From Pirellulales bacterium (lineage in GTDB: Bacteria; Planctomycetota; Planctomycetia; Pirellulales; PALSA-1355): a stretch of 64,000 nt of DNA. The notes below the pieces were generated by a model that was not told the DNA's origin, did no database searches, and saw nothing but the letters and a program-made list of their open reading frames with translations. Where the stretch lies: assembly GCA_963733035.1 (NCBI GenBank), contig CAVTBU010000007.1:128001-192000 (forward strand), read 5' to 3'. The position numbers were made by a program, and so were the translations under genes. Of this stretch, positions 29,968 to 40,063 are shown piece after piece. Every line of letters begins with the position of its first letter. The stretch's first letter is position 1.

Positions 29968-30175
29968 GAGAAGAGATTCCGCAAAGGTGGCTGCACAATC
30001 AGGCCCTGGATGCGCAAGCCACGGACGAGAACACTGCCAGCCACGCGCGCACAAAAAGCGTCGTGCTGTACCGGTTGGAAACGACCCGGACTCGCCGACG
30101 CTTCGAGGTGTTAGCCTTCAACTAGCATCAAACCCGTAGACTAGCTGCAAACCACGTCGAGACGCAAACAGCCTT

Positions 30176-30451
30176 TCAGTCGCCAACGTACGGCAGCAAG
30201 GCCATAAAGCGAGCCCGCTTGACTGCCAGCGTCACGGCGTGCTGGCTGGCCGCCGTGCAACCGCTCTTGCGGCGTCCGACGATCTTGCCCTGGCGATTGG
30301 TGAGTTTGCCGAGCAGGTCCAAATCCTTGTAGTCCACATACATCGGGCGCGGACGCTCGCCATCGACGAAGATGGGGTCCTTCTTCTTCGCCCGAACCTT
30401 ATTCTTGTTCGACCGCCGCTTCGGGGGCCCTTTGAATTTCTTGAATGCCAC
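30176..30451 (-). CDS. rpsR: 30S ribosomal protein S18
   Basis: VDYKD...GKIVGRRKSG...AVKRARFMALLPY. Confidence 0.95.
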   Translation of the reverse strand: MAFKKFKGPPKRRSNKNKVRAKKKDPIFVDGERPRPMYVDYKDLDLLGKLTNRQGKIVGRRKSGCTAASQHAVTLAVKRARFMALLPYVGD

Positions 30452-30635
30452 GAGTGTAACCTGTACTTCCTAAGTCGAGTTGGAACCCCACTATCTGAGC
30501 CGCTTGGCGGCCAAAATGCAAGCCCTAACGCCAGCCGCCGCCGAGAAAGCAGCCCCTCCGCGGCACGCGCAAAATCGCAGGGCGAGCCGAATCAATACGG
30601 CGAACTCGTTTGACGAACGCTTCGCGGGTCGATTA

Positions 30636-30986
30636 TCAGTAGTCGCGGCGACCACCGCCGCCGCCGCCACGACCTCCACGGCCGCCGCCATAGCCACCGC
30701 CGCCACCCCCGTAGCCGCCGCCACCGCCCGTCCGGGGAGCCCGCTCACGGGCTTCGTTCACCGTAATGGCTCGGCCGTCGATTTCCGTGCCATTTAACGC
30801 GTCGATCGCCCGCTGGCAAGCGTCGTCGGATTCCATCTCCACGAACCCAAAGCCGCGCGAACGGCCCGTTTCGCGGTCGGAGATCACTTCGGCCGATTGC
30901 ACGGTGCCGTGGGCGCTGAACAGCGCCTCGAGTGAAGCCGACGTGGTCGACCAGGGCAGGTTTCCGACGTAAATCTTCTTCGCCAT
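30636..30986 (-). CDS. RRM RNA-binding protein with Gly-rich tail
   Basis: KIYVGNL (RNP2), RGFGFVEM (RNP1), GGGG/RGG tail. Confidence 0.95.
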
Positions 30987-31208
30987 CACATAATGTCCTT
31001 TGCGCTCGTTTGGGGTGCGGTTTCTACCCGTACAAAGACTAATGACGCGTGCATCCGGCACCCCGCTCTTGTCGCCGCGTCAAGTCGGCCGGCTCCAGGG
31101 CTCAGGCAAGTTAAATGTACCTTTGCCGCTTAGCGCAATGCAAGCACTTATTGCGCTGGAAAAAGGGCCTGCCAAGCCCGACTGGCCGGGCCGGTTTGTT
31201 CCCCCTTT

Positions 31209-32504
31209 TTAAGCCCGAAAGTCGGCCCGCACACGCCGATAAAGCGCGCGGGTCTGCTCGGCCATGGCCGACGCGGTGAAACGTTCGAAAATCGCCTCCT
31301 GTCCGCTTTTCCCCAAATCACGGGCCAATTCGGGTTCAACCAGCAGCCGTTTGAGGGCGGCGGCCAGCGCCTGGGGGTCGTTGGGCGTATGCAGCAGGCC
31401 GCCCCCCGACTGCTCGATCGTTTCGGGAAAGGCCCCGTGATCGGGCAACACCACCGGCACCGCGTTGGCCAACGCCTCCAGCACGCTGATGCCCTTGCTC
31501 TCGCGATAGACCGTGGGCAAGCTCATCACGTCGAGTCCCTGCAAAAAGGCGATCTTCTCGGCGCGCGACACCTCGCCCACATACTCGAAGGCCCCGGGGC
31601 GGTTCCAGGCGTCGGTCCGCCGCTGGATCGTCTCCAGGTAGGGTCGGTCGAGCTTGCCCAGGTAGCCGGCCGCGCGAACCCGGAACGGCGGCACTTCCGA
31701 GTCAGCCTGCAGCAGTTCGGCCGCGGCCACCAGGTTGTGCAGCCCTTTGTCCGGACAAATCCGCGCCAAGAACCCGATCGTCCGTGGCTCGCCGGCCGCG
31801 GCGGGCCGCGTGCCGTGGCCGGCCAGATTCAGCCCGTGCGGAATCACGTGCACCCGCTCGCGCGGCACACTCAGGTAGTCGGCCATGTAGTCGGCGTAAT
31901 AAGTATTGAGCGCGACCAGGCCGTCGAGCTGGGCGGCCCGCTCACGCAGCACCTGCCGCGCGCGATCGTAGTGTGGCGGCGGCACCTTTTCCAGAAAGAT
32001 GTCCTCGCCCGAGAGCGTCGTCAGCACGGGAATGCCCAGCTTGCGAATCTCGTGGGCCACGCCGATCAGCATGGCATTCGACAGGTGTACCACGTCGGGC
32101 CGGGCTTCCTGCTCGATCCACCGTACCAGCTTCCGCACTTCCTTCCGCTGCCGGCCATGTTCGCCTTCGAGCATCGAGACCGTCAGGTCTCCCAACCGCT
32201 CCGGCTCAATGCTCGGTCCGCCCCGCGTCAGCCACGCGATCATCCGCGGGTTGTCGAGCAGGTGATCCAGAAACCAGGGCGTATGCCGAAAGATGGACGA
32301 GTGCTGCTGCAGGAAGACGTTGACGCCGCCAAAGAAGAGGTGCGAATCGCTGACGCTATCTTCATCGGTGCGGAGCGGCGTGTAGGTGGGCACGAGCAGC
32401 ACATCCTCACCCAGCGCCGAGAGCGCGGCCGCCAGCGTGTTGTCGTGCAGGCAACTGCCGCAATACATGCCGGCCGCCCCGGCCGCCAGATAGAGAATCT
32501 TCAT
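31209..32504 (-). CDS. Glycosyltransferase family 4
   Basis: MYCGSCLHDN N-terminus, ARICPDKG, ESKGISVLEALA. Confidence 0.9.
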   Translation of the reverse strand: MKILYLAAGAAGMYCGSCLHDNTLAAALSALGEDVLLVPTYTPLRTDEDSVSDSHLFFGGVNVFLQQHSSIFRHTPWFLDHLLDNPRMIAWLTRGGPSIEPERLGDLTVSMLEGEHGRQRKEVRKLVRWIEQEARPDVVHLSNAMLIGVAHEIRKLGIPVLTTLSGEDIFLEKVPPPHYDRARQVLRERAAQLDGLVALNTYYADYMADYLSVPRERVHVIPHGLNLAGHGTRPAAAGEPRTIGFLARICPDKGLHNLVAAAELLQADSEVPPFRVRAAGYLGKLDRPYLETIQRRTDAWNRPGAFEYVGEVSRAEKIAFLQGLDVMSLPTVYRESKGISVLEALANAVPVVLPDHGAFPETIEQSGGGLLHTPNDPQALAAALKRLLVEPELARDLGKSGQEAIFERFTASAMAEQTRALYRRVRADFRA

Positions 32505-32757
32505 AAGCCCCCGCCACGCTCAACGCCAAACGCGAATGCCCATCTATTTCGTCGCTGCCAATTGTAGAGGTCTTTGAGCGGATGGGAAATCGTCGACGGA
32601 AAACGATGTAGGGCAGATCGCAGGAGGCGGACGCGTCACGCAAGCAGCGTCACTGGCACGAACAGCGTCCGCTAAGACTACTAGACAAGACGTTACTTAA
32701 AGGTGGGGATCAGCTTTGCCTTGGCCTCGCTCATGGCAGATCATTTTCTTCAACGTG

Positions 32758-33895
32758 ATGGAGCTTGGCAAAATCCATGATGTACAGTTTGCAGGCCCAT
32801 CGAGTGCTACAATCGACCTGTCGAACAGGCGGCTAATGTCGAGATTTTCTTTTGCCTGGTGGCCTGCAATGAATGGCTTCTTGTACGTGCGCGTCGCGGG
32901 AAATCTCCGTCGACCGACTGCCATCTCTAATCCGGGCCTACCAGCAAAAGAACGCGAAGAGCGAATTCGACGCCTTCGGGTCCGGGCTCCAGGAGTTCAG
33001 CTCGCATGGACTGCTGTTTCGACGAATTGAGTCCTTGGCAGCAATCGAACTGGACCAGGTAGTCGTTGGACGCGACTATGAAACGCCCGGCGACTCGGGC
33101 CCCCACCAGGACTTTATCGGCGAAATGGGGCCGCAGACCAAACAGATGTTCTGCAGTTGGCAGACGCTTGTTGATCTGGAATCGCCGGTGGAAAGCAAGT
33201 TCGAACTGGCCGTGCACGGCGGGTGGCTTGTCCACGCCTCCTGGAATGAAGGTCGATGGTTTGCTGGATTTCATATCGGTAGTGCGTCCAAAGGCTTCCA
33301 GGAAATTGAGTACCGACATTTCTTGGTGGAACGCATCCTGGTCGCTATGGGCCTCGACGGCGGGATCAAAACCGAGTTCAATCAGGGCCACTTTACCATT
33401 TCTTCCCAGGAGCCTTGGCAGTTGCGCTTTATCCACGCCGGGCTCGGTGGACAAGATGCCCTCGGCATATGGTTTGGTGGCTTTTCCGACTATGCCCACG
33501 TGCTACGGGCCGCGCGTGGGGCGTTGCAGCATGTTTCGACCAAGATCTACGAGTGCAAAATTGCCGCCAGGTGCGATGCCTCGCAGTTTGAGTCGATCCG
33601 TGGACCGCTGAACGCGCTCGCTCATGATTGGCGCGTCGAACCCCTTGGCGAGTATACACCACGGGCGGCCGCCATTCTGGCGGGCGAAAGCGCCGACTTT
33701 GGCGAAATCTCCGTCATTCCAGCCGCTGAGTGGATCGAAAAGCGAAAAGGTGCGAAGGAGATTTTTCAACTGAACGTCCGCCCGGCCGGCCGCGGTTGCG
33801 TGCTCGAAGTGATTAGCGACTGTGCCGATGTGGACCGGCTGATGGATCGTGCCCAGATTCCTGCGGATCTTGGCTTTACGCTGGTCGCCAAATGA
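32758..33895 (+). CDS. Hypothetical protein in accessory island, apparent frameshift near 32900
   Basis: MELGKIHDVQF...YVRVAG appears to join EISVDRLPSLIRAY... of the 340-aa frame at a GGGAAA run; start uncertain. Confidence 0.55.
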
Positions 33896-34253
33896 TCGAC
33901 AGATTCACAAACCTCCATGCGGAGTGTTGGATGCTTGAGGACACTGACAGGATTGACATGATCGCTCGAACGCCACGTGGCGATCTCGAACTGATTATCA
34001 CTGACTGTGGGATCACAACGAACAATCGTGCGCGATTTGACCTATTGGTTTCCAAGCTGCGGACGTACGTCGGCTATATCGTCAGCGACGAGTTCACAAG
34101 AGAAAACGGGAATAGCGCCCTGGCGACATCGCCATTCGTGTCGTTGCGGCTTCTCCTCCAACAGCACAAATGAAGCGAATCACGCAGGTAAACCCGTCTG
34201 ATCGCCCGGACCTTGCAATTCCGGTGCGGTACGAAGTATTTCCTCGGCCCTGA
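33892..34253 (+). CDS. DUF6572-like small protein, apparent frameshift near 34110
   Basis: ATGA overlap with the upstream stop; DRIDMI...LELIITD.G...LLVSKLRTYVGYIVSDEF, continuing in another frame as PGDIAIRVVAASPPTAQM...YEVFPRP*. Confidence 0.55.
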
Positions 34254-34362
34254 TCCAATTGCGGGTGCCATATGGTAGGCCGCGTTTCAATGGGCCTTCC
34301 GATCTTCTGCCCGCTGAAAGATCTTTGCTATTCGGCTCTGGTCACGGCGTGCATCTCGACGA

Positions 34363-34627
34363 AACGCGTTTGAAATCTCCCGCTTGAAATCGGGCCAGCA
34401 CCTGCGGCATACTCACCCGCGGTCGGATGGCCTGCGACGTGTGGACGAGCAACAAGCCTGGGACCTTGGTTGTCTTGTCTTTGGAACCTGCCCATCCCCG
34501 CCGACACGTTTCGGCGGCACGAGGATTACGGGGTTCGCTTGCGTCCACATGTTCGCCGCTTGGCCGCGCAGATACGCGGCGCCGGGGATCCACGGCGCTG
34601 CAACTTGCGCGGCAGGTCTGGCTGTCT
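34363..34627 (+). repeat. Direct repeat copy 1 (~265 bp): promoter plus candidate structured RNA
   Basis: Near-identical to 36159-36419; four substitutions over the first ~200 bp, small indels in the 3' hairpin. Confidence 0.95.
34384..34413 (+). promoter_or_regulatory. Sigma70-like promoter in repeat copy 1
   Basis: TTGAAA-18 bp-CATACT; both hexamers are identical in the two copies while the spacer varies. Confidence 0.55.
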
Positions 34628-34629
34628 AT

Positions 34630-35166
34630 TTGGCCTCCCGTGCTCGCGGAATTCGCGGGCCACGCAACCGTCCCAATAAGCCCCGTACCGCTACGCCGAT
34701 CGGCCGTAAGAAGCCGCGGTTTCCACCGCCAGTTGATACGATCCGGCTTACAAATCGACGAGGTCGCACGACACCCCATCCAAATCACGTGGTGTCGGTT
34801 GTAACAGAAGAGGAAGCGGCGCGGTTCCTTCATTCACTGCCCGACACCGCGGTGATATTCTGGGGTCAAAAAATCGGAAAACATCGCGCGGACATAATCA
34901 CGTTTAACCTTCGCACAAAGGTCGTAACTTTTTGGGACGTCAAGTATCGCAGCAGTCCTGTTCGAATTCAGGCATCCAAGACATTTGCGAAGGGCAAGCA
35001 ATCGCTGGAAAATGTCATTGTGCAGGCATACGATGCCGTCCTACTGTCCAGTCTAACGCCAGCCGACAAGGCAAGTGCCACAAAAGCATTGGTCTTGCGT
35101 CGATTTCAAGTTCGTACGCTCGGCGCCGGTGCTGCCAAGAACTCGAGTCTAGGAGGGTCCCCATGA
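34630..35166 (+). CDS. Putative PD-(D/E)xK nuclease toxin-like protein (orphan, no delivery domain)
   Basis: E...ADIITFN...FWDVKYRS fits the restriction-endonuclease fold motif; start uncertain (TTG 34630, ATG 34549 or TTG 34384, all in frame). Confidence 0.55.
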   Translation: MASRARGIRGPRNRPNKPRTATPIGRKKPRFPPPVDTIRLTNRRGRTTPHPNHVVSVVTEEEAARFLHSLPDTAVIFWGQKIGKHRADIITFNLRTKVVTFWDVKYRSSPVRIQASKTFAKGKQSLENVIVQAYDAVLLSSLTPADKASATKALVLRRFQVRTLGAGAAKNSSLGGSP

Positions 35167-35900
35167 CCTTTGATCCCAAGCGATTACGCAAGGGTTTACA
35201 CGAGTATCTGATTGCCCTGGCCGAGAATGCGAGCCTTGACGAGGCTCGACGTGGGGAATGCATCGGTAGTGTCGGAAACCACCTGTTGCACATCGCCTTG
35301 CAATGCATTTTGGTCGGCGAGTTTGCCATTGCTAAAACTGTTCTGGCGAAAGTGCGTCGGTTTTTGCAGGAAGCAATCGAAAAAGGGGAGCACGATACGC
35401 CCGGATTGCGGTTCGTACTCGACAATTATTCGCTGACGTCTTGGTTGGTCGAAGGGCGTGATGACAAATCGAGTCTCCGCGAGTGCGTCGCACTCCGAGA
35501 GAAATGGTTTCAAGGAAAGGGCAATCTGAACCGAACCGAAATGCAACTCTCGCTGCTGCCGTATTTGCAATCGGGGCAACTCGACACGCTCATGGCGCGC
35601 TACGAAAGTGTCGGACTCACGAAACCCAAGAGCCTGCGACACATCAAGGGGGAGGGTACGATGTGCTACGTGCTCGCACGCCATCGGCTGGGACTTGATT
35701 ACACCGACGACGAAATCTCGCAGGCACTTCAGACCTTTCTGAAACGCTGCATGGAAGATTGGCTGTTCGGTCACTATTGCACCGTCGCCCGCTGGATGAA
35801 AATCGCGCATTGGAAACCCGGCGACGATCCGATCGCCACCGTGCTGCGCTGCTACGACTATCTGCCGGGCCGCAAGCCGCCGAAGTATCCCCCTGGGTAG
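35163..35900 (+). CDS. Putative immunity protein (helical, 245 aa)
   Basis: ATGA overlap with the nuclease-like ORF stop, GGAGG upstream; ends ARWMKIAHW...TVLRCYDYLP; function inferred from context. Confidence 0.6.
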   Translation: MTFDPKRLRKGLHEYLIALAENASLDEARRGECIGSVGNHLLHIALQCILVGEFAIAKTVLAKVRRFLQEAIEKGEHDTPGLRFVLDNYSLTSWLVEGRDDKSSLRECVALREKWFQGKGNLNRTEMQLSLLPYLQSGQLDTLMARYESVGLTKPKSLRHIKGEGTMCYVLARHRLGLDYTDDEISQALQTFLKRCMEDWLFGHYCTVARWMKIAHWKPGDDPIATVLRCYDYLPGRKPPKYPPG

Positions 35901-36038
35901 ATTCGATCGTCTGGCCCGTCGAATCGCAAAGCGACCTCCTCAAGTGAGAACAAGGAAGCTTGTCACAGGCCGCCAACCAAACCAAATCTTCAGGCGGTCG
36001 GCGATGAGCGTTGTCGACGACGTCTGCCAATCATACCA

Positions 36039-36099
36039 ACCCGAAGCGCGAGCAAGGAAGGACACAGCATACGGAAAAGCCCTCGCTTGCGCTTCGGGT
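36039..36099. repeat. REP/REPIN-like inverted repeat pair
   Basis: ACCCGAAGCGCGAGCAAGG ... CCTCGCTTGCGCTTCGGGT (17/19 match), resembling planctomycete intergenic REP palindromes. Confidence 0.7.
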
Positions 36100-36158
36100 G
36101 AGTATGGCCGTGGACGCTTTCACCGCGTCTCTGTCGCCGTCGCGATTTCTCCCACAAG

Positions 36159-36419
36159 AACGCGTTTGAAATCTCCGGCTTGAAATCGGGCCAGCACTTG
36201 CCGCATACTCACCCGCGGTCGGATGGCCTGCGATGTGTGGACGAGCAACAAGCCTGGGACCTTGGTTGTCTTGTCTTTGGAACCTGCCCATCCCCGCCGA
36301 CACGTTTCGGCGGCACGAGGATTACGGGGTTCGCTTGCGTCCACATGTTCGCCGCTTGCCGCAATACGACGGCGCCGGGGATCCACGGCGCTGCTCTTGC
36401 GCGGCAGGTCTGGCTGTCT
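36159..36419 (+). repeat. Direct repeat copy 2 (~261 bp): promoter plus candidate structured RNA
   Basis: Near-identical to 34363-34627; TTGAAA 36180-36185, CATACT 36204-36209. Confidence 0.95.
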
Positions 36420-36623
36420 TTGCCGCACGAAGGTTTTTTAGCCTGGCTTGGCGGTGGCGGAAGCCGCCGTCACTTGACGTACTGGTAAAACGAGTGCTTC
36501 GTGCTGCATGCCGCGTGTCGCGCCGCTCGGTCGATGGCCGAGGAGTGACCAACCATTAACCACTTTCAAAGTCCAATCCCGGCTCAACCGAGCACGACAC
36601 GCTTCTGTTTTTAAAAAGCGTCC

Positions 36624-36669
36624 AACCAAACGCCGCGCGCACCCTTGCGCGCTGGCGTTTGGTTTTTTT
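36624..36669 (+). terminator. Intrinsic terminator
   Basis: AACCAAACGCC-GCGCGCA CCCT TGCGCGC-T-GGCGTTTGGTT followed by a T run. Confidence 0.75.
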
Positions 36670-36973
36670 GTTTTCAATTCGTCCTTTGTGCCCTTGGTGG
36701 TTTTTTATCAACATCCTGTTTTTAATTGCTTACAGTTGCCCCTTCGCAGCCTTGGGTTCATTCGGAAGAATCGCGATTCGCGTCCACAGGACCAGGGGCC
36801 GACGCCCGCTGGCCATTCGGGGTCGCCGCTGTGTGGCTTTATTCGTACCTCCTCAGGCCCAGCCCTGACCGACTGGGGACACGCTACTCCCGCTGCGAGA
36901 TTCAGGCACGGCGTATACAATGGTCACCACCTCGATGCGAATCAAAAGAAGCCCTCGGACGTCACGCGCCTTG

Positions 36974-38036
36974 ATGCTCCCCACGCTGCGAATTGGACCA
37001 ATTGAACTCGACTTTCCCGTCGTGCAGGCGGCCCTGTCGGGCTACAGCGATTGGGCGATGCGCGTGATCGCGCGGCGGCTGGGGGCGCCGTATACGCTTT
37101 GCGAGGTGATGCTCGATCAGTTCATCAACGAAGTGACCAAGGGGCGCAAGGCGCGGCGCTATCCTGCGCACCAGCGACGAAGAACATCCGGTCGGCGGGC
37201 AGTTGATGGGGGCCAACCCCGAGGATTTTGCTCCGGCCGCTCGGCACCTGGTCGAGGCCGGCTTCGACGTCGTCGATATCAACTTCGGCTGCCCGGTCAA
37301 AAAGGTGCTCGGCCGACAACGCGGAGGGTTCCTGCTGGGGCAAGTCGACACGGCGCTGGAAATCGTCTCGCGGGTGCGCGAGGCCGTGCCCGACCGCGTG
37401 CCGGTGACCGTCAAGATGCGCCGCGGGATCGACGATTCGGCCGAGAGCCGCGACAAGTTCTTCGAGATCTTCGACGGCGCCTTCGAGCGGGGCGTGGCGG
37501 CCATCACCGTGCACGGCCGTACCGTCAAGCAGCGCTACGTCGGGCCGAGCCGGTGGCAGTTTCTACGCGAAGTGAAACAGCATGCCGGCCAGCGCGCGGT
37601 GTTGGGGAGCGGCGACTTGTTCACGCCGCAAGCATGCCTCGACATGATGCGCGAGACGGGCGTCGACGGCGTAACGGCCGCCCGCGGCGCGATCGGCAAT
37701 CCCTGGATCTTCGCCCAGGCCCGAGCGCTCGCCGCCGGCCAGCCGCTTCCCGCGCCGCCGACGGTCCGCGAGCAGCGCGACGTGATCGCCGAGCACTATC
37801 GACTGAGCGAGGAACTCTACGGCCCCGAAACGAGCGGGCGGCAGATGCGGAAGTTCGGCATCAAGTACTCACAGCTCCATCCCCAGGGCAAACAGGTCCG
37901 CGACGCGTTCGTGAAAGTCGCCCGGCCCGGCGAGTGGCTGACGGTATTGGAACGGTGGTACGCCGCAGACGCTCCCGGCGTGCATCCCTCGGCCGAGGAA
38001 GAGCAATTGATGAATTGCAGCGAGTCGGCGGCGTAG
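36974..38036 (+). CDS. tRNA-dihydrouridine synthase (Dus family), apparent frameshift near 37163
   Basis: AALSGYSD in the first frame; GGQLMG...DINFGCPVKKV...TVKMR...TVHGR...ARGAIGNPW in the second. Confidence 0.9.
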
Positions 38037-38054
38037 CACGGGCCCTGTCAGCGT

Positions 38055-39209
38055 TTAGCCGGGAGGCATCGCCGACCGCGTGCCGCTCGCCGCGGAATGG
38101 AGCGCCGCCGCGATTTCGGTCAGGACCTCGGGATCGTCTTCCCGCGGCAAGCGGTGCTCAATCGCCGCACGAGTCGCATCAGAAGCGAATTGACCAAGCG
38201 CCCAGGCGCAAGCTCCGCGCACCAGCGGCTCGTTGTCGCTGAGTCCGCGGATAAGTGCGGGAATTGCTTCGGTCGCCCGCTGGTTGCCCAGCACGATGGC
38301 CGCATTGCGCAGGATGCCGCGCCGCTTGGGGCGCCACAGCGGCGTGCGACGGAACCGAGCCTTGAAGCTGGCGTCATCCAAATCGAACAGGGCAATCAAG
38401 TCGAGCGTGGTCGCTCCGTCGCGCGGCTCGAGCGACGGCTCGTCGGTCGTCACCGGCTTATGATTCCAAGGGCAAACATCTTGGCAAACGTCGCAGCCAA
38501 ACACCCAATCCTGCATACCCGCGCGCAGTTCCGGCGGGATGGATTCGCGCCGCTCGATCGTCAGGTAACTGATGCACTTGCGGGCATCGAGCACGTACGG
38601 CTGGACGAAAGCCTCGGTGGGGCAGGCGTCGAGACAGGCCGTGCACGTGCCGCAGTGATCGGATTCGCGTGCATCGTCCGGCGGAAGTTCCAAATCGGTG
38701 AGCAGCGCCGCCAGGAAAAACCAACTGCCGGATGGCTTGTTCAGCAAAAGCGTGTTCTTGCCGATCCAGCCCAGCCCGGCCAGTTGCGCAAACTCGCGTT
38801 CCAACAGCGGTGCCGTGTCGACCACCGTTCGCGCCGACGCGGTCGGAGCGCGAGCGAGCAGAAACAGTTCCAGGCGTCGCAAACGCTCGCGGATCAAATC
38901 GTGATAGTCGTCTCCCCAGGCATACCGGGCCACGCGGCCGTGGCCCGGTTGAGGAGGCGCCGGCTCACGGGTACGATAAGGAAACGCAAGCACGAGCAGG
39001 CTGCGAACGCCGTCGAGCACATGCCGCGGATGCGAGTAGGCCTCGGCCCGATTCGGCAGATAGTGCATCGTGCCCGCGTAACCGGCGGCCAGCCACTCGG
39101 CAAAGCGATCGATGCCTGCGGGCGTGACGGCCGCGCACACGCCGGAGAGCGAAAAGCCCAGCCGTCGGGCTTCGTCTTTTAATGCGGCGGTGAGTTGTCT
39201 GTTGTCCAT
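38055..39209 (-). CDS. queG: Epoxyqueuosine reductase
   Basis: VARYAWGDDYH, VDTAPLLER, CGTCTACLDACPT, CISYLTIE, GCDVCQDVCPWN, HEAT tail. Confidence 0.95.
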   Translation of the reverse strand: MDNRQLTAALKDEARRLGFSLSGVCAAVTPAGIDRFAEWLAAGYAGTMHYLPNRAEAYSHPRHVLDGVRSLLVLAFPYRTREPAPPQPGHGRVARYAWGDDYHDLIRERLRRLELFLLARAPTASARTVVDTAPLLEREFAQLAGLGWIGKNTLLLNKPSGSWFFLAALLTDLELPPDDARESDHCGTCTACLDACPTEAFVQPYVLDARKCISYLTIERRESIPPELRAGMQDWVFGCDVCQDVCPWNHKPVTTDEPSLEPRDGATTLDLIALFDLDDASFKARFRRTPLWRPKRRGILRNAAIVLGNQRATEAIPALIRGLSDNEPLVRGACAWALGQFASDATRAAIEHRLPREDDPEVLTEIAAALHSAASGTRSAMPPG

Positions 39210-39261
39210 GTGGTCACAAACGAAAACCTGACTGGTCTCGCCCGAGCGATCGCCCCCTCTG

Positions 39262-39531
39262 ATGTTTACACCAAAATGCCTGCACCTGCTCGCCGCCGCC
39301 CTGCTGGGGAGCGTGCTGTTTGTCGGCTGCGAGAAGCCCTTGGACTCGCCGGAGTACGGCGAGCTGATCCAGAAGATACCGCCGGAGTTTGACCGGCCGT
39401 TTCCGCTGCCTGAACTGGACCAGCCGAGCCCCTCGCCGCTCGCCGGCCCCGCCGAAGCCCCAACCGACCCGGCTCCGCCCGAAGCCGGCCCCGCCCAGGC
39501 GGAGACGCAGGACAAGGAAAGCCATAAATAG
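39262..39531 (+). CDS. Small Pro-rich lipoprotein
   Basis: Signal peptide with lipobox FVGC. Confidence 0.7.
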   Translation: MFTPKCLHLLAAALLGSVLFVGCEKPLDSPEYGELIQKIPPEFDRPFPLPELDQPSPSPLAGPAEAPTDPAPPEAGPAQAETQDKESHK

Positions 39532-39631
39532 CGCCTATTTTCTCTATTTTGAGGATTGCACTACCCCAGCTTCCCAAATAGCCTCAAAGAGAGAGGCATC
39601 TTCTGAGCTCTTCCTACGCGAGGTTTGTGAC

Positions 39632-40063
39632 ATGTTCCGGCGAGTGAGCCTGTGGGCGGTGTGTGGTGTTCTGTTGGCGGCAAGCTTTGGTGCTTCGCGG
39701 GCTTCGGCTCAATTCGGTCCGGGCGGCTACGGCATCGGCTTCTTCAACTACGGTGGCAACTACTACGGTGGCAACTATCGGGTGCCGTACTATGCCCTGT
39801 TTCCGCCGGTGTACTACAGCTATCCCGTACCGCGGACCTATGGTTACAGCCCATTTGCTTATCCTCCCGGAACGATGACGCCCAATGCACCGCAAAAGGT
39901 CGCCGCGGTCGAATACGCAAACCCGTTCGTGGGCGGCGCTCGCCAGGATGGAGCGGTGCCGGCACCGGTGGGTAAGCAAGAGCCGGTCGATCCGACGGCC
40001 TCGTTGCCACGAATGTACTACAATCCGTTCGTACAGCCCCCGCAAACTGCCAGCACGAAGTAG
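39632..40063 (+). CDS. Secreted Tyr/Gly/Pro-rich protein
   Basis: Signal peptide ending ASA|QF; VPYYALFPPVYYSYPVPRTYGYSPFAY; GAGG RBS. Confidence 0.8.
   Translation: MFRRVSLWAVCGVLLAASFGASRASAQFGPGGYGIGFFNYGGNYYGGNYRVPYYALFPPVYYSYPVPRTYGYSPFAYPPGTMTPNAPQKVAAVEYANPFVGGARQDGAVPAPVGKQEPVDPTASLPRMYYNPFVQPPQTASTK

Follow-up and report, generated by a model that had tools for sequence, protein, structure and literature searches.

A genus-restricted, multicopy family of large structured non-coding RNA genes predicted in Pirellulales

This study concerns a repeated element in a 64,000-nucleotide stretch of the genome of a Pirellulales bacterium (GenBank assembly GCA_963733035.1, contig CAVTBU010000007.1, positions 128,001 to 192,000), hereafter the window, whose numbering is used unless another contig or locus is named. 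An initial annotation, made from the sequence alone, had proposed that the stretch 34414-34627, one half of a two-copy repeat, is a structured RNA of about 210 nt. The repeat is in fact a dispersed family of 16 members, and the flagged stretch is the 5' domain of one of them, not a whole RNA, since the predicted unit is about 400 nt long and in the other copy extends to 36612 or 36669. We think it probable that this unit belongs to a new, genus-restricted, multicopy family of stand-alone, highly structured large non-coding RNA (ncRNA) genes, each predicted to be transcribed independently. The unit shows what is expected of a structured ncRNA gene, namely a promoter and a terminator of its own (both predicted), no coding signal, and a fold on one strand with covariation. 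The proposal of a structured plus-strand ncRNA starting just after CATACT fits the absence of Rfam matches and of a conserved frame, the strand asymmetry of the fold and the covariation among homologs.

The direct repeat described by the initial annotation was recovered at 34363-34562 and 36159-36358 with 98% identity, and with indels it reaches 34627 in the first copy (copy A) and about 36420 in the second (copy B). Reading the sequence, we found each of the named motifs in its place: CATACT at 34408-34413, CGGTCGGA at 34420-34427, CCTGC at 34431-34435, GACGTGTGGACG at 34436-34447, the hairpin CCGCCGA-CACGTT-TCGGCGG at 34498-34517, CGTCCACATGTT at 34542-34553, and GCAGG/TCTGGCTG at 34612-34624. 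The four substitutions between A and B are also as described, one just before the -35 box, two in the spacer and one in the core, and the core change, C34438/T36234, turns a G-C into a G-U pair; the 3' indels have lengths that are not multiples of three and so break reading frames. The 214-nt stretch of copy A has a minimum free energy (MFE) of -106.9 kcal/mol (z = -3.09, with 1 of 200 shuffles equally stable), with z = -2.25 on its minus strand and z = -2.06 for the equivalent stretch of copy B. Its MFE structure contains the closing helix, the 12-bp stem, the CCGCCGA hairpin and the long 3' hairpin that had been drawn, but not the nested GAACCT/GGGTTC and ATCC/GGAT stems, the intermediate pairs being GGACCUUG/CGGGGUUC and UCUUGU/ACGAGG instead. 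The closing helix does coincide with the end of homology between A and B, but copy B remains homologous to six more copies for at least 240 bases further. Likewise, the complementarity behind a suggested competing hairpin is genuine, but the conformational switch built on it is unsupported, since that sequence never varies within the subfamily. Overall, the first proposed fold is plausible and agrees with the family architecture described below, its finer details being predictions.

A BLAST search of the element against its own genome (6.65 Mb in 10 contigs, 92% complete) returned eight copies with 95-100% identity, seven of which are homologous beyond 34627; only copy A diverges there. The unit has a sharp 5' edge, as homology of copy B to other copies begins 1-2 nt before the -35 box. 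A covariance model (CM) of the 3' block, built from nine sequences (R1), recognises 15 sites in this genome, seven in subfamily 1, four in subfamily 2, three in subfamily 3 and one in subfamily 4. Membership was counted as these sites plus the truncated copy A, which makes 16 units in four diverged subfamilies, 490-660 bp in size. Between diverged members just two parts are shared, the promoter together with the first ~25 bases predicted to be transcribed, and a block of ~85 nt near the 3' end. The distance from promoter to AATCCCGGCTC is nonetheless 386-402 nt in all 15 complete members (measured to the end of the motif in the copy at L125), although their middles barely align. Furthermore, the promoter motif CTTGAAWTNNNGCCA has 22 sites in the genome, and 16 of them are family members.

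Copy B is the complete unit of the window (36180-36669, plus strand), with a promoter, a predicted RNA of about 400 nt in three folded domains, a U-run and a second terminator. The promoter (36180-36209) consists of TTGAAA, an 18-nt spacer with two substitutions relative to the other copies, and CATACT. In the 5' domain (36216-36430) the 5' end pairs with about 36410-36430 and encloses hairpin A, formed by the 12-bp stem and its branches, and hairpin B. The middle domain (36431-36510), delimited by fold and alignment and missing from copy A, carries the hairpin GGCGGUGGC-GGAA-GCCGCCGUC. Alignments A3 and A4 and models R1 and R2 (R2 being an improved 3'-domain model built from 17 sequences) show the 3' domain (36511-36612) to be the best conserved region of the family; it consists, in order, of CCGCGUG, stem P1, GAUGGCCGAGGAG, an A/C-rich apical loop with UAACC, AAUCCCGGCUC and the return strand of P1. 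The U-run at 36604-36612 is likely to be the primary terminator. A second intrinsic terminator, CCAAACGCC...GGCGTTTGG followed by T7, occupies 36625-36669, and homology to three copies stops exactly at the last T of this strong hairpin and T7. Extra homology further downstream (36670-36838) reaches about 36746 in two copies and 36838 in one, where a terminator-like hairpin (36825-36837) adjoins.

Copy A (34384-34627, plus strand) has the same TTGAAA, 18-nt spacer and CATACT (34384-34413), found by consensus scan, and of the RNA part only the 5' domain with closing helix, long hairpin A and hairpin B (34420-34627), identified by alignment, fold and CM, after which it is cut off. The 5'-domain CM scores 228 bits on copy A and the 3'-domain CM finds no match at it; past 34627 the sequence is unrelated and stays open in frame into an open reading frame (ORF) of 125 aa. 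Copy A is best read, on this anatomy, as a truncated member whose promoter and structured 5' domain would now be the leader of a two-gene cassette.

The copies also carry traces of exchange. In subfamily 1 the loop variant GAT/GTA and the bulge variant TC/AAC are found in all four combinations. The interior of copy A is one mismatch from a copy on contig 4 and copy B resembles copies on contigs 8 and 9, even though 18 nt of upstream flank are common to A and B only; this flank, AACGCGTTTGAAATCTCC, lies at 34363-34383 in A and 36159-36179 in B, and the other copies lack it in the eight-copy alignment. Because of these variant mosaics, and of interior affinities at odds with the flank shared by A and B only, the sequences indicate that copies recombine or undergo gene conversion.

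Homologs in sister species were recovered by CMs only. When the full unit was compared by BLAST with 32 genomes of its taxonomic family, no match appeared outside the own genome, and R1 gave three matches in sister genome G013, six at E≤1 in G014 (five with E≤0.003 and one with 0.58) and none in the third sister genome, G015, so that the family is present in two of three sister-species genomes. The RNA of the sister species is longer, 563-714 nt from promoter to 3' motif. The family was not found in 29 genomes of other genera of the taxonomic family, nor in about 140 genomes of the order's other families; of the weak R1 matches in other genera (E 0.004-1), the four inspected (L069, L070, L071 and L085) resemble coding sequence. 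With R2, 150 genomes of the order gave the own genome, G013 and six weak single matches (E 3e-4 to 9e-3), which we take as chance since all six lack UAACC and UCCCGGCUC and TTGAAW occurs within 700 nt upstream in only one. A first exact-pattern scan of one genome per species found no loci, the pattern being too specific to the own genome. When it was relaxed and run over 185,579 species, one genome each, 29 loci were found; eight are true by CM score, all in two metagenome-assembled genomes (MAGs) that match G013 and G014 by identical scores, and the other 21 are by the same score chance matches in unrelated phyla. A metagenome scan gave 18 loci, of which five, in five contigs, are true and of the sister-species type. 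Within the reach of these searches the family is confined to one genus, a soil/wetland genus from which it is known only through MAGs.

The covariation proposed as a check on the first reading was found in these homologs as compensatory pairs, and no reading frame is conserved. Full-length copy B (36216-36612) folds on the plus strand with z = -3.72 (0 of 100 shuffles as stable) and on the minus strand with z = -1.68 (5 of 100), and a subfamily-3 copy gave z = -3.25. Six sister-species copies were aligned, leaving out L083 with its 150-nt insertion and L092, which is cut by a contig end; 144 pairs were predicted and 94.7% of alignment cells pair. Both sides have changed in 20 of the 144 pairs against 11.6±2.0 in shuffles, none of 500 reaching 20, and a slid control in which partners were moved by 1-3 columns gave 0-4 two-sided changes. 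Four copies of subfamilies 3/4 yielded 125 predicted pairs, seven of them compensatory. In the 3' domain, aligned over 17 sequences of both species groups, 97.8% of cells pair and 3 of 16 pairs are compensatory; all three lie in P1, whose variants are GCUCGG/CCGAGC, CUCUUUGG/CCAAAGAG and GCCUUCGG/CCGAAGGC. Of the paired cells in the structure alignments 14% and 10.8% are G-U, and the same helices would pair in 82% and 87% on the opposite strand, against 95% and 97% on this one. Within subfamily 1 (eight copies), all three substitutions in the 12-bp stem are exchanges of G-C and G-U, and the indels are located in loops and in the outer helix of hairpin B.

A common layout of predicted folds emerges from three groups that were aligned separately, namely subfamily 1, subfamilies 3/4 and the sister species. 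A helix between the 5' end and a segment about 200 nt downstream, immediately past hairpin B, encloses long hairpin A; a middle domain follows, and then the 3' hairpin domain with the U-run. By hand comparison the closing helix reads GGUCGGA/UCUGGCU in subfamily 1, AGUCUGG/CCAGGCU in subfamily 3 and GGUCUGG/CCAGGCU in subfamily 4, and keeps its register through two double changes and a single one, a count made by eye and not computed. The core of hairpin A, also compared by hand, changes from GUGGACG/CGUCCAC to G(G/A)GGA(C/U)GU/AUGUCCUC and to UGAGACG/CGUCUCG, and the sequence of hairpin B varies while its position, inside an outer helix of the CUCC...GGAG type, stays the same. A global MAFFT/RNAalifold alignment over all subfamilies was too noisy in the 5'-domain region. 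A CM-guided alignment of the 5' domain across subfamilies was not available either, because R3, the model of the copy A-type 5' domain, is confined to subfamily 1 and one weak match.

Several points weigh against this reading of the unit as an RNA gene. The pairing consensus was predicted with RNAalifold on the same alignments that were used for the covariation counts, which inflates the contrast with the controls, and each alignment holds only about 3-4 independent lineages. The copy A-type 5' domain is almost invariant in its eight copies and hence offers no covariation test; R3 recognises, apart from subfamily-1 copies, a single subfamily-3 copy at E = 0.046, which is no convincing transfer, and the link of the 5' domain to the other subfamilies rests on position, shared motifs and hand comparison. 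Start, end and expression of the RNA are predictions, the 16 sequencing runs listed for 36100-36800 being all DNA metagenomes, which speaks neither for nor against expression, and any action of the RNA in trans is a guess. Finally, the narrow range within one genus, the near-identical dispersed copies and their presence or absence at orthologous loci are what a selfish repeat would show, rather than a cellular regulator.

The unit is non-coding. Long open frames do cross the element on both strands, as is usual at ~64% G+C, and one frame of copy A continues into a real-looking ORF, so that the repeat could encode a small protein, either the N-terminal part of the 260-aa frame 34384-35166 or a type-I-toxin-like peptide whose translation is controlled by the RNA structure. 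Near-identical subfamily-1 copies, however, differ by 4-, 1- and 2-nt indels that break the frames, the ATG of one candidate is created by a single A/B substitution, and the gap between the two invariant 3' motifs measures 27, 33, 28 and 28 nt in the four subfamilies, a spacing not in multiples of three. The subfamilies are open in different frames across the 3' block and have neither an ORF nor a hydrophobic peptide in common, and there is no Pfam match; we regard a coding role as extremely improbable. A type I toxin-antitoxin locus was rejected in the same way, as no small ORF is conserved between subfamilies.

Searches for known RNA classes gave no match, and the initial annotation had not recognised the family either. 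Rfam 15 gave no match at the gathering score in the 64-kb window, none at E≤10 in 34200-36700, and none overlapping the RNA at E≤5 in six other members, and ARAGORN found no tRNA or tmRNA in 30000-40000 or at the six member loci. Three smaller ideas were also set aside: GAGGAG as a mimic of a Shine-Dalgarno sequence, being unconserved in the sister species and paired in the model; pairing of the UAACC loop with the tRNA D-loop or 16S rRNA, where complementarity is short; and a CsrA sponge, as GGA is by eye not clearly enriched (about 7 per 400 nt are expected from base composition, and copy B is close to this).

The promoter of the unit is TTGAAA, 18 nt and CAnAnT, with a conserved TCGnGCCA at the start of the spacer. 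A scan for TTGAAA-18-CATACT gave three sites in 2.8 kb, against 1.0±0.8 in shuffles, and found the motif at both copies of the window; the sister-species homologs keep it as GCGCTTGAAATCTTGCCACCCTTTCTGGCAGACT. Its sequence fits an ordinary, probably strong, housekeeping-type (sigma-70-type) promoter, and we infer that the unit is probably transcribed from it. The same motif, with the TCGnGCCA start and a CATACT -10 box, is also present about 390 nt upstream of the ORF of rpsO (ribosomal protein S15) at contig 6, 346978 (L160:201), a position that would imply a long leader. At contig 6, 451338-451460 (L161:201-320), the motif is followed by ~85 nt and a strong hairpin, GGGCCCCTTGCTGG, and then T7, which makes this site a candidate small RNA of another kind. 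Rfam had no match at the six promoter-motif sites outside the family, including this candidate.

A promoter followed by a long structured part might also be a portable leader with an attenuator, a mobile promoter or riboswitch-like device that controls the downstream gene in cis. About 13 of the 16 copies have a same-strand gene downstream (read from ORF lists), in copy A an open frame follows on from promoter and 5' domain in direct fusion, and the terminators could serve as attenuators. This co-orientation of ~80% is, however, not far above that of usual bacterial neighbours, the baseline being an estimate and not computed, and the neighbouring gene is convergent for no fewer than two copies, C5_345 and the one at L061, where it is polyphosphate kinase. 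At copy B two consecutive terminators and 250-300 nt of unrelated sequence precede the next start codon. Furthermore, the downstream genes share no function; they include P450, an isoleucyl-tRNA-synthetase-like gene, an esterase (alpha/beta hydrolase), a metallophosphoesterase, a DNA methylase, an IS3 transposase and several without Pfam match. The upstream genes (DUF1559 proteins, a Mur ligase, an HD-domain protein and a FadL-like protein) are equally unrelated. With no Rfam riboswitch or leader match and no conserved pocket of a known ligand type, a cis-acting leader is very unlikely, and for the unrelated downstream genes and the two terminators at copy B we rejected a riboswitch or cis-regulatory leader as an assignment for the family.

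The main rival to an RNA gene is a selfish, non-autonomous mobile DNA, spread in trans or by recombination, whose promoter, terminator and fold serve its spread or are incidental and have no cellular RNA function; the two overlap, as a mobile unit could still make a functional RNA. Presence of the family in one genus only, its eight copies of 95-100% identity at unrelated loci, the sharp 5' edge and the nested 3' edges at 36669, ~36746 and 36838 all suit such an element. So does its behaviour between species. In four measured orthologous intergenic regions (L090, L068, L083 and L087) the sister species has a unit within 1.2-1.5 kb, and the own genome has 82-650 bp and no unit; in addition, near-identical copies (L087 and L088) occupy different loci in the two sister species. 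Sister-species RNA genes are furthermore bracketed by inverted REP-like repeats of 26-34 nt, of the type CTCTGCG..CCTCTGCGGTGAATC (L067:970-1003 with 1680-1713, L067:1723-1770 with 1974-2021, and L087:1428-1453 with 2328-2353), which were not seen in the own genome. About 250 nt upstream of the promoter are likewise conserved among the sister-species copies, and this too was not seen in the own genome.

On the other side, the own genome shows no terminal inverted repeats on the unit and, by eye, no target-site duplication in its flanks. Neither a recombinase nor an IS110-type gene is found among the neighbours of the copies, and the five genomic matches to DEDD_Tnp_IS110 all lie more than 100 kb from every one of the 16 copies, so that an IS110 bridge RNA or IS1111 seekRNA was rejected. 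Neither the TnpB zinc-ribbon domain nor RVT_1 has a match in this 92%-complete genome, and with no reverse transcriptase among the neighbours of the copies the unit does not fall in the retron class. One copy is syntenic between species: L088 of G014 is flanked on both sides by orthologs of the genes around the own copy at contig 7, 665699-666131, and there the flanking protein genes have 70-72% DNA identity while BLAST cannot align the RNA genes. Because promoter, length and 3'-domain structure are conserved across subfamilies whose middles can no longer be aligned, and because compensatory changes occur, the unit appears to be under selection as RNA. Taken together, we consider a chiefly selfish element unlikely.

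The one IS200-type transposase gene adjacent to a copy encodes a 153-aa protein of the IS200/IS605 family (NF033573, 61.2 bits with a cut-off of 55) at L053:1379-1840 on the minus strand, which corresponds to contig 8, 11393-11854. This tnpA is the best Y1 transposase match of the genome and is oriented away from copy C8_12, 175 nt upstream of that copy. The palindrome CCAGGGGCAAYGCCCCTGG flanks it at L053 ~1294-1312 and ~1910-1928, and since these are its only two occurrences in the genome, tnpA is a separate insertion; gene and palindromes look like a single intact IS200-type element. A role of tnpA as mobiliser of the family, or of the unit as a PATE or omega RNA, was rejected, the palindromes being private to tnpA and outside the RNA unit and TnpB having no matches.

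As a stand-alone RNA gene, the unit probably has the following make-up. A housekeeping-type promoter would drive a transcript of about 400 nt here and about 560-710 nt in the sister species, which the U-run would end. In its 5' domain of about 200 nt a closing helix would join the 5' end to the segment that directly follows hairpin B, and the middle domain and the conserved 3' hairpin domain would follow; there the long stem would present an unpaired A/C-rich loop with (C)UAACC and probably double as the terminator. Copy A has lost everything after the 5' domain, and its promoter would now read into the two-gene cassette. Recombination or gene conversion probably maintains the similarity of copies in a subfamily, and between species copies are gained or lost at individual loci. 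It is possible, and we put it forward tentatively, that this is a class of 400-700-nt, three-domain RNAs carried by a self-contained promoter-to-terminator cassette that multiplies in Pirellulales genomes, diversifies and recombines, mobile-like but without a transposition protein, with the invariant 3' hairpin as its core, for instance as a handle for a host protein that also mediates spread. Somewhat doubtful is the idea of a trans-acting scaffold or regulator RNA, in which the invariant 3' hairpin would be a contact for protein or RNA and the fast-evolving 5' domain would confer subfamily specificity.

OLE, GOLLD, ROOL, HEARO/omega RNA and raiA have each led to new biochemistry or remain an open puzzle. 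To our knowledge, large bacterial RNAs with complex folds are rare outside the ribosome, RNase P and tmRNA, and almost no ncRNAs have been described from Planctomycetota. To judge from the parts of the literature cited here, the family resembles OLE, ROOL, GOLLD and the raiA motif in spanning hundreds of nucleotides, in having several domains with long-range closing helices and invariant blocks between covarying stems, and in being a stand-alone gene whose function cannot be deduced from context (PMC12286853, PMC9723947, PMC10861870). Unlike them, it has no Rfam 15 match to any of the four, is present in 16 copies per genome and in a single Pirellulales genus, and evolves so fast that orthologous copies of sister species fail to align by BLAST. 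In the titles and abstracts surveyed, no such RNA is described for Planctomycetes or Pirellulales.

Other known systems share other traits. Multicopy sibling small RNAs include Qrr, csRNAs, LhrC, NsiR1 and Yfr2; as with these, several paralogous RNA genes occur in one genome, each with promoter and terminator, and an exposed loop motif, here (C)UAACC, is a possible seed. Unlike them, the present family is 4-7 times longer and has three domains, its copies are 95-100% identical over ~500 bp with sharp edges, and its loci are mostly unconserved between species. HEARO/omega RNAs of IscB/TnpB, IS110 bridge RNAs and retron msr-msd are likewise structured ncRNAs, of 150-400 nt, found in many copies through a multiplying element. 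Here, by contrast, no defining protein gene lies beside any copy, HEARO and the other Rfam models have no match, and the unit has its own promoter at the 5' edge and terminator at the 3' edge instead of being embedded in a transposon end. REP/BIME, MITE and PATE elements are similar in their dispersed intergenic copies, strong hairpins and presence or absence, with an IS200-type transposase beside one copy, but the unit has 490-660 bp, lacks terminal inverted repeats here as well as the IS200-flanking palindrome, and conserves promoter, length and pairing across subfamilies that have diverged in sequence.

The family would add a large structured RNA class from Planctomycetota. It is unusual in having up to 16 promoter-to-terminator copies per genome that are gained or lost between species without a linked mobility gene. 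If transcribed as predicted, it would be a tractable case of expansion and homogenisation of an RNA gene family, and a candidate for a new ribonucleoprotein.

Around the two copies, the cassette behind copy A consists of the 125-aa ORF (34789-35166, plus strand), within the long open frame 34384-35166, and a second ORF of 245 aa (35163-35900, plus strand) that overlaps it. Neither has a Pfam match. In the Atlas the 125-aa ORF scores 0.94 with a cluster that has Mrr_cat in 40% of its members, a weak lead only, and the 245-aa ORF has an Atlas lead to DUF6707 at 0.92, of low recognition value; the cassette (34789-35900) may encode a small nuclease and a partner protein. Just upstream of copy B, a hairpin at 36032-36106 has two 26-nt arms of 85% complementarity, separated by 23 nt, and may be the terminator of this preceding cassette. 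A 93-aa ORF just upstream of copy A (33892-34173) has a sub-threshold match to DUF6572 (26.3 bits, cut-off 27), and downstream of copy B lies a queG-like epoxyqueuosine reductase gene with HEAT repeats (38055-39515, minus strand). Further away, an 18-nt periodic, GCC-rich direct repeat of three units with 71% identity (30652-30722) lies inside the minus-strand ORF 30636-31061 and is probably a Gly-rich coding repeat.

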